Source: Escherichia coli
Lineage (GTDB): Bacteria; Pseudomonadota; Gammaproteobacteria; Enterobacterales; Enterobacteriaceae
DNA: 64,000 nucleotides
Reading direction: 5' to 3' (one strand)
NCBI RefSeq assembly: GCF_030013205.1
Contig: NZ_CP122648.1
Below are positions 56,901 to 62,900 of the stretch, piece by piece (positions within the stretch are counted from its first letter, which is position 1; each line of letters opens with the position of its first letter). The position numbers were made by a program.

Positions 56901-59900
56901 AACTATTTTTTATATCAATGTTACCTTGTCGAATAGCAACTGCATAACTTCCATGCTCCCCGGTTTCAAGTGCCACATAATCTAAATTAATATATGCTTT
57001 TTCCCCATTAGCATAAGCACCATAGCTATTAGTGCCATTAGTTGTTATGGAACCACCATTCATTTTTAAATCAGCACGGCTAATAACTTCGTAACTGTTA
57101 GAATCACTAACTTCATCATCTACAGCATCGACACATGTTCGAGACTCTCCAGGACTTGAACATGCAAGAACACCTACTGCATTTTCCCCATAGGTAACAA
57201 TGTTCGTTTTATCTGTGGTTTCAAGACGGGTGTTATTTTCCACAATCCCAGAATCATTAACCTGACTTAAAAGTCCCGCTGAATATGCCCCCCTCGTCTC
57301 GACTGAATTATCACCATTCATAACGATGGTGCCACCAAATTCACTGACTACTGCGCTGGCTGTTATCCCTCCATTAACATCTTGGTTATTTCCTTTGTCA
57401 GATACGCTTCCAGAGGTCTTAATATCGCTATCGCTTATATAATACTTTGTTATGACTATCAACAGAAATACCATAAGATCCATCACCACTAGTCATCACA
57501 CTGGCATTATTTATATATCCAGTTACACCGTCATCCACTTTCACAGCATGGCTTTCGTCTTTAGTGGTTAGATACTCTCCATTACTTATCGAATTATTAT
57601 CTTTGATTTCAATCGGCGATTCTTCATCAGTTATATAGGAAAGTATACTATAATCATCCAACAATTGTGTTGCATATGCATTACCCACCGCCAAAGCAAT
57701 AAGTCCTAAACTAAACCCGGGGAGTTTTTTCAGTTTCATAGATTAACCATCCATTCATTGGATTAACAAACATTCCTGGTCAAATAACCTATGAGTTCAG
57801 ATTACCAAAACGGAGGGTAAAGACAAAAACAAAAGCACAAAAAATTTAAATAGATAAACAGCGACAATATATAAATGATAAATAAGGCGGCATTATCATT
57901 TTTCACCTTATTTTCATGACATTGATCACTTTGGGGTGACGATTTTGTTTAACAAATAACTCTTCGACATCAAAATTATTAATAGTTGCCATAGAAATTA
58001 TTTCGATGATATATAAAACCAACTGTGATAACACCAGGGTTGACAACTATTTGCGCAATAATTCCTTTCCTTCAATGATCCAGGCGTTCACTGTCAGCAC
58101 CCCATTCAGCCGCATACTGACAGTGAGAAACTGAAAGATTATTGCTGATCCCTGTGGCTGACGAGTCTTTCCCTTAATCGATTAACCAGATTGATCGCCA
58201 GCCAAACAAGGGCATTAAGCAAATTTATCGTCACAAGCACTTCTCCCAGCCCGGTACTGGGTTTTGCAATAAGGATGACCAGGAGAGTGATCAGCATAAA
58301 TGCAATGGAAAAGATGATATAGAGAGTGAAATAATCCAGATTATTACTATTGTTCATGCTACTAATGGCAATCCTGTCAAAACTTTCAAACAATTATAGC
58401 AAACAAAATAATGAACAATAGTAACAAGAGGCAACGAGCTAATTAGCTGTCTATAATTACACCGCACCATGGCCTTACTGATCGATTTTCACTCAACCAC
58501 AACCTTCACCTTCGGTTTAGAAAGGATAATTTTGACCAGGTCGATGTATGTTACCGGTTTATAGAAATAATAACCCTGCTGAAATGTGATATTATTTTGA
58601 TTCAGATAGTCAAGTTGTTCTTTCGTTTCGACACCTTCAGCGACGATACTGATCGAAAGTTTACGCGCCAGATCCAATACACAATCCAGAATCCGAGTTG
58701 ATTCTGGGTCTGCGTTTACGCGGCCAACGAAACTGTGATCAATTTTGATATAATCAATATGCAGGTCATGCAGATAAGAAAGCCCTGAGTAGCCAGTACC
58801 GAAATCATCCAGCGCAATGACAAAACCATTTTCATGCAGAATGTTCAACCGCTGAACCAGACTTTCATCAACATTTAATGGCTCACGCTCGGTAACTTCC
58901 AGAACGAGGTTTAAATCGCGACGGGTAAAACTGTCACGGTAATTTAAGCACTCGTCGACAAATGTCGGCGAAATAATATGCGAGGCGCTAAAATTAATCC
59001 CAATATGAAAACCTTCCGGCAGTTTACTCGCGATAGCGTTCATCTGTCTGGCAACCTGATTCATCAGGCTTCGCGTAAGCGGAACGATTAATCTGGATTT
59101 TTCAGCAAGTGGAATAAATGCCGCGGGTGATATATATCCACCGTGAGGTTGTTTCCAGCGGGCTAACACCTCAACTCCCCGCAATGTCCCTTCCCGACCA
59201 TTTACCACAGGTTGGTAAAATGGGACGATCTCCCCATTATTTATAGCCCGTCGCAGGATCTCTTCAGGCGTTGCGCTTTTATTGAAATACCTATCAAGCA
59301 GGAAGGCAGCGGCGCAGGCGATTAACAGAATAAATATCAAAATCCCAAAGCCTTTATCGATAAGTCTGTAGAAGCTAAAGAGTGGCGGCGGGTTAAAGAT
59401 AATAGTGAAATGATATTTTGTGGAGTGAACCTTCTCGGTATAGGGATAGTGTCCATTAAGCGTCATCACATCACCCGTAGGTCCAATAATGTCATCTGCC
59501 ACGCGTAATACATACCTTACCCCTTTCAAGGGTACATTAAGCGCCCCGCGAATATGCTGATCACTTATCGTAACCAAAATGCGCGTATCTGCAAATTGGC
59601 TCTGATAGAGCAGGATAGGTAATCTATTAACGGTGTCGATTGCCGGAGCCAGCAGTAAATTACTGGATTTGCCCCTATATTTCCAGACATCTGTTATCAC
59701 TTAACCCATTACAGGCCCGCTGCCGCAGATATTCCCGTGGCGAGCGATAACCCAGCGCACTATGCGGATGCCATTCGTTATAATGCTCGAACGCCTCTGC
59801 AAGGTTCTTTGCTGCCGTTAACCCGTCTGGTTTGGGCATGATACTGATGTAGTCACGCTTTATCGTTTTCACGAAGCTCTCTGCTATTCCGTTACTCTCC

Positions 59901-62900
59901 GGACTCCGCACCGCCGTGTTCTTCGGTTCAAGTCCCAACATCCGGGCGAACTGGCGTGTTTCATTAGCCCGGTAGCATGAACCATTATCCGTCAGCCACT
60001 CCACTGGAGACGACGGAAGATCGTTGCCGAAGCGGCGTTCCACCGCTCCCAGCATGACGTCCTGTACTGTTTCACTGTTGAAGTCGCCGGTAGTCACCGC
60101 CCAGTGCAGTGCCTCACGATCACAGCAGTCCAGCGCGAACGTGACACGCAGTCTCTCTCCGTTATCACAGCAGAACTCGAACCCGTCAGAGCACCATCGC
60201 TGATTGCTTTCTTTCACGGCCACTCTGCCTGTATGTGCCCGTTTCGATGGCGGTACAGCAGGTTTTCGCTCAAGCAACAGCGCATTCTGGCGCATGATCC
60301 GGTAAACACGTTTGGCATTGATCGCAGGCATACCATCAAGTTCTGCCTGTCTGCGAAGCAGCGCCCATACCCGACGATAACCATACGTGGGCAGCTCTCC
60401 GATAACATGGTGTATACGGAGAAGCACATCCGTATCATCAGTGTGACGACTGCGGCGGCCATCCATCCAGTCATCGGTTCGTCTGAGAATGACGTGCAAC
60501 TGCGCACGCGACACCCGGAGACAACGGCTGACTAAGCTTACTCCCCATCCCCGGGCAATAAGGGCGCGTGCGCTATCCACTTTTTTGCCCGTCCATATTC
60601 AACGGCTTCTTTGAGGAGTTCATTTTCCATCGTTTTCTTGCCGAGCAGGCGCTGGAGTTCTTTAATCTGCTTCATGGCGGCAGCAAGTTCAGAGGCAGGA
60701 ACAACCTGTTCTCCGGCGGCGACAGCAGTAAGACTTCCTTCCTGGTATTGCTTACGCCAGAGAAATAACTGGCTGGCTGCTACACCATGTTGCCGGGCAA
60801 CGAGGGAGACCGTCATCCCCGGTTCAAAGCTCTGCTGAACAATTGCGATCTTTTCCTGTGTGGTACGCCGTCTGCGTTTCTCCGGCCCTAAGACATCAAT
60901 CATCTGTTCTCCAATGACTAGTCTAAAAACTAGTATTAAGACTATCACTTATTTAAGTGATACTGGTTGTCTGGAGATTCAGGGGGCCAGTCTAATTACT
61001 GTCCGGGAAAACAGGAATACGAGACAGTAGGACCCGATTCCCCGGTAAGGATGTACACCAGACCGTTCCCTGTTTGAGAATGATGATTGTGCGCAGGTGA
61101 GGTTTCAGAGCTGCTTCAGTGCCAAGCTGATATTGCTCCTCGAGGTCGCATTCCTTCCCGGCAATGTTAACCGCCGTTTGAGTCGCCTGTGACGCTTCTT
61201 CAAGTATATGATTGATATTGTTGGCGGCATATCTTGCTCCCGCCAGGTACTCTGCTTTTGCGGAATACCAGAGCTGGATGTTCAAAATAGTGACACCGGT
61301 TATAAACAAGCATATCGCAATGAAGATGGGTATGAGTGTATTGCGCATTTGCTTGTCCCGGCCAAAGGGTTTAATACATGAAAATGCCATTCATTCGCTC
61401 GCACTGGCATCTACAGAGAGCATGGTAGAGAGCATAAGAAATATCCACGCTGAAGATAAAATTTTCTCCATCTTCATCTAACCTATTAATTATTGAGCAC
61501 AATGTAGTCAGAATTAAACAAATTAGGTGGGATATCAGGCGTCAAGAATGGAAAACGAGCGCTCTCCATTCCTGTTTGCCCCCTGATATTGCGGATATAT
61601 TAAGAAAGCATAACGCCTGAAATGCTCACTTTGCACCAGCATGATGATACAGCTGATGTTTATTCTATAACCTTACTCAAGTTCTAAGAGAGCACTGATT
61701 CCCTGTCATTAATAATGATATCCGTTAGTGTAGTCTTATGCATTTCAATGTACTGCAAGATTTGCAGATAGAGATCAGAAAGAATCACACTAGTTTCATC
61801 TTTTAAACGCAAGCGTAAAGCCTTATCAATAATATGACTATCAACATACCCGTGCGTCATGAGCACCTCCCTCTCGAGATTTTTAAACAAAGCACATTGA
61901 AAAATAAATCTCTCGGGGATTGAATTATTCATGTCAGCCTCGTAGGAATATTGACCCAATAAAATTATGCTGTGTATAGTCTAAAGCGACAGACAAAAAT
62001 AAGATGACTGAGTTTTCTATAAACTTATACTTAATAATTAAAAGTTACATATCATCAGCTGTGTATCGCAACACGATTTCCAGTGTTTTTCTAATCACAT
62101 CAGCTTTGAGAATATCACTTGTTGTTTCCAGAGAGTGTATCAGACTTAAGATAATATTTTTATTATTAACATTATCGCCTGAAAGCATTAAATTGGTCAC
62201 AGCCTGCCCTAACACAGCTGACTCTTCTTCTAACAAATTACCTGAACTACGAAAGTAGCTTGATAACGCTTTATCAGTTATTGCATTATGAATTGTAGTA
62301 TCTTCAAGCATGGTAACCTCTCATCTTACTTATGAAATTTTAATGTATTCTGTTTATTTTCTTACCATTGAACATACTTTTATTGTCAGCTATCGCTGTT
62401 CTTCTGTTTGGCTCTCCTGTATCACTGTTGCTAAAATCACGAATTATGCTGTCAATTAAATCTCGTCGGAAAGCATTTTCCTCAACCGATTTCATTACGA
62501 GTAATTGCTTAATAAGAGTCTGTAACGAAAAATTTATCTTCATGCGCAGTATATGGAGCACCGCCTGGCCAGTAATTTCATATTTTGTACTTTCATTATC
62601 AGATGTCTTCATAACGACTTCATAGCTAACCTGTTAAATAATCAGGCTGTTGCATTATTCAAAAAGCAACCCAATTAGTGCATTATAATGTTTCTGTTCC
62701 TCTTCCCCTGTCGCTTGTTCCAGTCGGCATAGAAGTTTGGCACAAAGCGACTTTCGACTCAGATTACGTCCATCTTTCAAAATCTCAGTCACAATTTCCC
62801 CGAGAGTTTCCTGCTGAGTAGGCAAGTTAGCTTTTGCAAAGTAACGAGTGATTGCTCCCGCAGAATCTAAAGTCACTGAATTTTGATGCATGCTACGCCT

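Follow-up and report, generated by a model that had tools for sequence, protein, structure and literature searches.

IS2 insertion splitting the phosphodiesterase gene pdeG in a porcine Escherichia coli lineage, and recurrent IS2 insertion in the same region of other genomes

The insertion sequence (IS) IS2 is known to choose its targets non-randomly, with a hot target in P1 and another in hemB that lack a consensus and possibly depend on DNA curvature, and both its A6G frameshift window and the lengths of its terminal inverted repeats have been described (PMC3299598). The IS2 minicircle-junction promoter (Pjunc) needs exactly 17 nucleotides (nt) between the elements of the right and left inverted repeats (IRR and IRL) (PMC3299598), and IRR is able to form fusion promoters with -10 elements in flanking DNA, for instance at ampC (PMC9330008). 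PdeG (YcgG) belongs to the set of five CSS-domain phosphodiesterases of Escherichia coli that act on cyclic di-GMP (c-di-GMP); it is weakly expressed and its role is unclear (PMC5635695, PMC6385356); within the c-di-GMP network of E. coli it has been assigned to the core hub of interactions (PMC5635695). Here we describe a complete IS2 inserted in pdeG within a 64,000-nt stretch of E. coli DNA (contig NZ_CP122648.1, assembly GCF_030013205.1), which is referred to below as the window. The full-length, sensor-coupled PdeG is certainly lost, because the gene is physically split and cannot give rise any more to the enzyme with a first transmembrane segment (TM1), the CSS domain, a second transmembrane segment (TM2) and the EAL domain.

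The element is 1331 bp long, lies on the minus strand at 59664-60994 and is the sole IS2 copy in the window. Its termini, which the initial annotation had placed at these same two positions, enclose a sequence matching the annotated mobile element IS2A of MG1655 at 1326 of 1331 bases (5 differences, 99.6%). The low-coordinate terminus at 59664 is the tip of IRR, where the plus strand begins TGGATTTGCCCC, and the high-coordinate terminus at 60994 is the tip of IRL, where the plus strand ends GGGGCCAGTCTA. The inverted repeats are imperfect, with IRL (minus strand, 60953-60994) comprising 42 bp (TAGACTGG...) and IRR (minus strand, 59664-59704) comprising 41 bp (TGGATTTG...), and their lengths and asymmetry agree with those published (PMC3299598). 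On the plus strand the junction at 59663/59664 reads GCAGTAAATTAC followed by TGGATTTGCCCCTATATTTCC, and that at 60994/60995 reads CAGGGGGCCAGTCTA followed by ATTACTGTCC. Identical ATTAC pentamers flank the element, as had been noticed before; the left copy of this target-site duplication (59659-59663) corresponds to pdeG coding nt 350-354, that is, GTAAT on the coding strand, and the right copy was read from the sequence at 60995-60999.

The two transposase open reading frames (ORFs), which overlap, are intact, and so are the A6G frameshift site and the inverted repeats. The minus-strand gene insC (orfA, 60538-60903), with 121 codons and a stop, encodes a protein identical to InsC1 of MG1655, and insD (orfB, minus strand, 59675-60580), with 301 codons, carries one amino acid change, G166D. 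The slippery sequence AAAAAAG at 60580-60586 (minus strand) is the site of the programmed -1 frameshift that yields the OrfAB transposase (PMC3299598), and RefSeq labels the product 'IS3-like element IS2 family transposase' with 'programmed frameshift'. InsD matches the Pfam families HTH_21, rve (residues 124-227, E 2e-18) and rve_3 (216-281) and has the catalytic residues D132, D198 and E234 with DD(35)E spacing. The G166D change falls in the rve core between D132 and D198 and results from a single-nucleotide polymorphism at 60084 (minus strand) that is private to this IS2 copy; among seven pig enterotoxigenic E. coli (ETEC) genomes it occurs only in ETEC4079. Length and identity, inverted repeats, orfA/orfB with A6G, the DDE core and the 5-bp duplication are thus all those of IS2, and such a full-length, near-identical copy of a known element, bearing the 5-bp duplication expected of it, is not plausibly due to chance.

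The interrupted gene is also on the minus strand, co-directional with the transposase genes, and starts with MRNTL at 61348. IS2 sits between coding nt 354 and 355, and the 5' fragment (60995-61348) counts exactly 118 codons, in line with the earlier estimate of about codon 118. This fragment holds TM1, the first half of the CSS domain and the periplasmic cysteines C67 and C98, with the native promoter region upstream at 61349-61683. It is ended by the first three bases of IRL, TAG at 60992-60994, which give an immediate in-frame stop and hence a stub of 118 residues with zero foreign residues. Beyond the 1336 bp that split the gene (IS2 plus the duplicated ATTAC), the 3' fragment (minus strand, 58489-59663) runs from codon 117 (partial) to codon 507 and the stop, and encodes the second CSS half, TM2 and EAL. 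The longest ORF across this junction reads through the end of IS2 into the EAL fragment, as the initial annotation stated. It has 403 codons (minus strand, from 59700 to 58489), beginning at a GTG in IRR with 12 IS2-encoded residues and continuing with PdeG 117-507, and exactly this chimeric protein has been called on 3 public contigs. RefSeq annotates both pdeG halves as pseudogene fragments around the IS2 transposase.

Precise excision had been expected to restore the reading frame, and in silico removal of IS2 with one ATTAC indeed gives a 507-codon ORF of 1524 nt that is 100% identical to the annotated intact pdeG of at least 40 complete genomes, which also provide the insertion-free comparison that had been proposed. 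Because the excised allele equals this natural intact gene, the insertion is recent and simple, with no associated deletion or rearrangement. The reconstructed protein differs from K-12 PdeG by 10 amino acids and the ymgC-pdeG-ymgF synteny is the same; Pfam assigns residues 31-217 to the CSS motif (E 3.6e-31) and 251-486 to EAL (E 4e-66), and TM1 (about residues 4-26) and TM2 (about 217-243) are apparent as peaks of hydrophobicity. Orthology, synteny and the TM1-CSS-TM2-EAL architecture of the reconstructed ORF therefore identify the gene as pdeG, the coding sequence of which is interrupted in the window. The genes ymgC, ariR, ymgA and ycgZ as well as bluF are present around it, as the earlier description of the ycgZ-ymgA-ariR-ymgC and bluF neighbourhood had it. 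That description also held that the promoter and the first transmembrane/CSS segment had been cut from EAL. TM1, C67 and C98 do lie in the N-terminal fragment; however, the cut runs inside the periplasmic CSS domain, roughly halving it, and not between CSS and EAL, and the C-terminal fragment retains the remainder of CSS together with TM2 and EAL.

The same allele is found in other genomes. The stretch 55014-64000 (about 9 kb compared) is identical to NZ_CP122643.1 of strain ETEC4079 (pig faeces, Belgium), and the whole 64 kb differs from the pig strain K_EC180 by 4 substitutions and 1 indel. In 7 complete pig ETEC genomes the two IS2 junctions are found without any change. Another 22 contigs have the exact 118-residue stub as a called protein, and among them are short-read contigs that pass from pdeG into IRL and end within IS2. 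A literature search combining pdeG or ycgG with IS2, which did not cover the survey of GGDEF/EAL variation by Povolotsky and Hengge (2016), found no description of the allele, and a junction search of metagenomes for either IS2 orientation gave 0 matches and is uninformative. Public genomes already contain this allele with its annotation, and it is an ordinary gene disruption by a known element in a known gene.

The position at which IS2 entered pdeG has been used repeatedly. About 26 IS2 events were counted at the locus, 19 of them sequence-verified and 7 inferred from alignment spans, and clean 5-bp duplications were present at 19 of the 19 insertions checked at sequence level (that of the window and 18 others). 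At the ATTAC site itself, a canonical IS2 is found co-directional with pdeG in the pig ETEC haplotype and in an avian-associated group of 7 genomes (e.g., NC19), and inverted in a fox isolate, while a 95.6%-identical IS2 isoform is found co-directional in RS571 and inverted in EM10-18-28. Three pdeG haplotypes occur at this site, with flanks that are 2-5% different, including at positions 2-12 bp from the junction, and the same three configurations recur in haplotype B and in haplotype C; IS2 copies within one type are nearly identical to each other. Judged from these flanks and elements, the ATTAC site was used at least five times independently, in three haplotypes, by two IS2 isoforms and in both orientations. 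A single ancestral insertion, recombinational transfer or in-situ inversion is implausible because the flanks differ near the junction and the isoforms differ. Inversion and transfer had been considered as the origin of the same-site alleles and were rejected on these differences at 2-12 bp, on the two isoforms and on the finding that both pdeG fragments are in place in the inverted alleles. A second site, at nt 304-308 with the target CC(A/C)GG, contains a canonical element in strain 600 and the isoform in 1517k, and near-reuse is seen at nt 556-560, where the insertions of PK6 and STLEFF_47 are 2 bp apart and in opposite orientations.

The distribution of IS2 along the locus was surveyed in 5426 genomes with chimeric queries joining 300 bp of the locus to 300 bp of an IS2 end, pieces being joined if within 800 bp. 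For the 5' region of pdeG, 48 genomes had a co-directional and 16 an inverted IS2, representing about 14 and about 12 distinct events; these range from nt -430 to +621 and show no orientation bias. At least 19 sequence-verified insertions cluster in nt 137-621 and upstream. The same query design gave 1 co-directional and 10 inverted genomes for the 3' part, where the insertions inspected were situated from nt 1407 onwards or between ymgF and pdeG, with none seen in nt 663-1400. These queries returned no IS2 insertion in the EAL core in any of the genomes surveyed. Four control regions were queried, all with the co-directional design alone, and gave 7 genomes for ymgC-ycgZ, 2 for hlyE (41% GC) and 0 for treA. 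Under uniform targeting, nt 1-621 would receive every one of the 15 verified coding-region events with a probability of about 8e-6, or about 9e-4 when the 9 unique sites are counted in place of events; for the inverted events taken by themselves (6 versus 0 for the 5' part), p is ~0.009.

Aligned by element orientation, 14 distinct IS2 sites yield a weak preference for G/C at duplication positions 1 and 3 and for A/T just before the duplication, and no usable motif emerges among these 14. A 13-bp palindrome around ATTAC, CAGTAA-A-TTACTG, was considered as a target signal and discarded, as it is off-centre with respect to the duplication and statistically unremarkable. In the composition profile the insertion site lies at a modest GC step, from 44% to 53%, which is not diagnostic. 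A 2014 study by Goncalves reportedly describes a bias towards compositional shifts, and the GC step at the pdeG site is compatible with such a bias.

Other insertions in the neighbourhood leave pdeG intact. Many IS2-family insertions lie 10-430 bp upstream of the start codon or in the ymgF-pdeG spacer (e.g., 19SZHZ886Rt), and an upstream insertion at nt -83 is shared by about 21 isolates from humans, dogs and cats (WP2-W18-ESBL-10 plus 20 genomes like it). Further IS elements are found in this neighbourhood in strains 19SZHZ886Rt and M15, namely an IS1A located between ymgC and ariR, plus another IS3-family element on the upstream side of pdeG, and the AT-rich ycgZ-pdeG block as a whole may therefore be IS-prone. 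Also, clustering at 90% groups the N-terminal stub with proteins of 72-118 residues, 87 members in all; many of them come from Shigella flexneri and S. dysenteriae and are annotated as 'partial', a sign that in Shigella, too, the 5' part of pdeG may often be interrupted, or broken at contig ends, by IS elements.

We consider it probable that a simple IS2 transposition left a null or strongly hypomorphic pdeG and that the recurrence reflects IS2 target preference rather than selection for one product. A single recent transposition would have placed a standard IS2, with its usual 5-bp duplication, in pdeG of a porcine ETEC lineage. The native promoter now drives just the 118-residue stub ended by the TAG of IRL, and the EAL half, presumably deprived of promoter and start codon, would most likely have no useful expression, so that the allele would be null or strongly hypomorphic for a phosphodiesterase whose expression is weak in any case and whose use is conditional. 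Together with the upstream spacer, the 5' third of pdeG would constitute a regional hot target for IS2-family elements, with ATTAC as its hottest point, and the recurrence would most likely be caused by the structure-dependent, consensus-free target preference of IS2. This preference is the best explanation of the recurrence because inverted insertions are equally frequent and sites are reused to the exact base.

Several observations weigh against this reading. The IRR of the element, which carries the outward -35 of Pjunc, faces the EAL fragment, the flank supplies TAATTT at the required 17-nt spacing, and a scan of 58400-61700 reported no terminator-like site between insD and the EAL fragment; for these reasons some transcription into the EAL fragment is plausible on sequence grounds. 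Truncated YcgG variants are active (PMC6385356, PMC10459773), and so, to a high degree, is the TM2+EAL fragment of the paralogue PdeC (PMC5897775). The absence of insertions from the EAL core could reflect selection keeping the EAL domain, and the survey compared about 26 events, 7 of them taken from alignment spans, with four control regions in the co-directional design only. The initial annotation had called the insertion inactivating, which holds for the full-length sensor-coupled enzyme, whereas a null function is what we infer from the sequence and has to be set against the activity of the truncated YcgG/PdeG variants (PMC6385356, PMC10459773).

Recurrence could alternatively be due to selection, if losing or uncoupling the CSS sensor or the promoter of PdeG were repeatedly advantageous in some host-associated lineages, in parallel with the CSS-domain deletions fixed in phylogroup B2 and sequence type 131 (ST131). 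We regard this as a minority possibility. It would agree with the wide occurrence of CSS-domain deletions that preserve the EAL ORF (PMC6385356, PMC10459773), with the lack of a full-length match in about 1100 of 5040 genomes with pdeG, with the numerous truncated N-terminal fragments in E. coli and Shigella, with the avoidance of the EAL core by insertions and with the presence of several alleles in multi-genome clones (7 pig ETEC genomes, 7 avian genomes and 21 with the upstream insertion). Selection does not explain, however, why the same 5-bp target is reused to the base at two sites and in three backgrounds, and inverted insertions, which are presumably null anywhere in the gene, show the same 5' bias (6 versus 0, p ~0.009). 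Many insertions are intergenic and leave pdeG intact, and the non-random targeting of IS2 was established independently (PMC3299598). The survey covered IS2 insertions only. Selection sparing the EAL domain is possible and fits the B2/ST131 deletion alleles, but it is not required. A composite account, in which a hot target is combined with repeated host-associated selection to uncouple or silence the redox input of PdeG while sparing EAL, and in which co-directional IS2 alleles express a deregulated TM2+EAL phosphodiesterase, is in our judgement improbable.

It is likewise doubtful that IS2 deregulates the enzyme, with IS2-derived transcription giving an N-terminally truncated PdeG that would comprise TM2 and EAL without TM1 and the cysteines and would be redox-blind and possibly constitutive. 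The putative source of transcription would be read-through from the IRL promoter (P-IRL) or a candidate IS2/flank fusion promoter at IRR (minus strand, 59657-59685), composed of a -35 TGGAAA (59685-59680), a 17-nt spacer and a -10-like TAATTT (59662-59657), and reading into the EAL fragment; the identity of the -35 hexamer was deduced from the published spacer geometry (PMC3299598). Translation would begin at the GTG in IRR (403 residues) or further inside the fragment, for example at M183, where GGTGAT precedes the codon. The orientation of IRR towards an EAL fragment whose ORF is open from 59700, the reproduction of the Pjunc geometry by the flank, the documented IRR fusion promoters, as at ampC (PMC9330008), and the lack of a terminator-like site are all in its favour, as are the high activity of cysteine-free PdeC and of TM2+EAL PdeC (PMC5897775), the activity of natural CSS-deleted YcgG alleles, one of which is more effective than full-length YcgG (PMC6385356, PMC10459773), and the absence of IS2 from the EAL core across the genomes surveyed. 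Nevertheless, the -10-like hexamer, which is composed of the duplicated target and flank, agrees at 3 of 6 positions and does not reach the cut-off of the promoter scan. That scan, again over 58400-61700, reported no promoter at the IS2/pdeG junction, so that the fusion promoter is a sub-threshold candidate. For P-IRL, weak activity and repression by OrfA have been described (PMC3299598), the GTG overlaps the end of insD and is without a clear Shine-Dalgarno sequence, and membrane insertion seems doubtful for a product with about 100 periplasmic-domain residues before TM2 and neither a signal sequence nor TM1. Because inverted insertions, from which IRR-driven expression is impossible, are about as frequent both at the ATTAC site and in the region, an orientation-specific benefit is not the driver of recurrence.

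Although IS elements in general commonly cause misassembly, the chance that a misplaced repeat produced this position is practically negligible, and the insertion can be taken as real, because the junctions are identical across 7 independently assembled complete genomes and the exact pdeG-IRL junction recurs in independent short-read contigs, with nothing specific to this case pointing to an artefact, a clean 5-bp duplication and an excised sequence equal to the natural intact allele.

Identical IS junctions at pdeG in unrelated strains are homoplasies, probably arising from a hot target, rather than signs of shared ancestry, and pdeG::IS2 is therefore unsuitable as a clonal marker. The locus also provides a ready natural substrate for studying the target choice of IS2. 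That a pig ETEC lineage is without full-length PdeG is a modest fact of strain annotation. Should it be true that selection contributes, the alleles would add to the evidence for repeated discard of the PdeG sensor domain in natural E. coli.

The window contains other disrupted genes and small elements. The periplasmic trehalase gene treA (18313-20010, plus strand) has a premature stop at codon 497 of 565 and is annotated as a pseudogene in K_EC180. Frameshifts are present in a gene for a TonB-dependent receptor (24797-26766, plus strand), located downstream of an iron ABC transporter/modD cluster, and in a hypothetical gene (31954-33389, plus strand), both of which could be real pseudogenes or homopolymer sequencing errors. 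An IS200C copy (37911-38502, minus strand; tnpA 37911-38369) lies between ycgB and fadR and is accompanied by the Hfq-binding RNA STnc490 (Rfam, 141.8 bits), and the small RNA C0299 (43510-43588, minus strand; Rfam, 111.9 bits) lies just upstream of hlyE. These two are the only Rfam matches in the window, and the pdeG/IS2 region has none. The reading frame of bluF (63205-64000, plus strand) stays open as far as the window extends; a frameshift annotated for this gene in K_EC180, due to a 1-base deletion at the equivalent of position 63972, was looked for and is absent here.

Compared with the type copy IS2A of MG1655, the element in the window is alike in its 1331 bp, its 41/42-bp inverted repeats, its orfA/orfB arrangement with A6G, its DDE (rve) core and its 5-bp duplication, and it departs from it by five base differences, of which the private one places G166D in the catalytic core of InsD. 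The reconstructed PdeG has the same order of TM1, a two-cysteine CSS domain, TM2 and EAL as PdeC and PdeB (PMC5897775). Redox control and processing by DegP/DegQ were shown for those two enzymes and not for PdeG, however, and in the window the CSS domain is genetically severed (PMC5897775 for PdeC and PdeB).

The closest natural alleles of the gene itself are ycgG2 and the other truncated YcgG forms of B2 extraintestinal pathogenic E. coli, ST131 and commensals (PMC6385356, PMC10459773), in which TM/CSS is likewise uncoupled from an intact EAL domain. Those alleles differ in having arisen by deletion and in keeping a start codon (TTG or ATG) and a promoter (PMC6385356, PMC10459773). Their product is soluble, of about 283 residues and with demonstrated phosphodiesterase activity, whereas the 3' fragment in the window retains half of CSS and TM2 and its expression is only putative. 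For the junction, the relevant precedent is the ampC fusion promoter (Jaurin and Normark, 1983, to the extent that it is cited in PMC9330008), where IRR supplies an outward -35 next to a promoterless coding sequence with a -10-like hexamer at 17 nt, as here; in comparison the hexamer in the window is weak (3/6) and makes it a candidate only.

With regard to target choice, the IS2 hot targets of phage P1 and of hemB (Sengstag et al., 1983; Lewis et al., 1994), as far as they are summarized in PMC3299598, show clustering over about 1 kb, exact-site reuse and no clear consensus, all of which recur in pdeG, where both orientations are observed to be used. The pdeG target differs from them in being chromosomal and in being inferred from natural genomes rather than from a mutant screen, and selection or clonal expansion may thus contribute to what is seen. 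The hot-target behaviour of the 5' region of pdeG is therefore a modest addition of a known kind, which fits the published non-random target choice of IS2.

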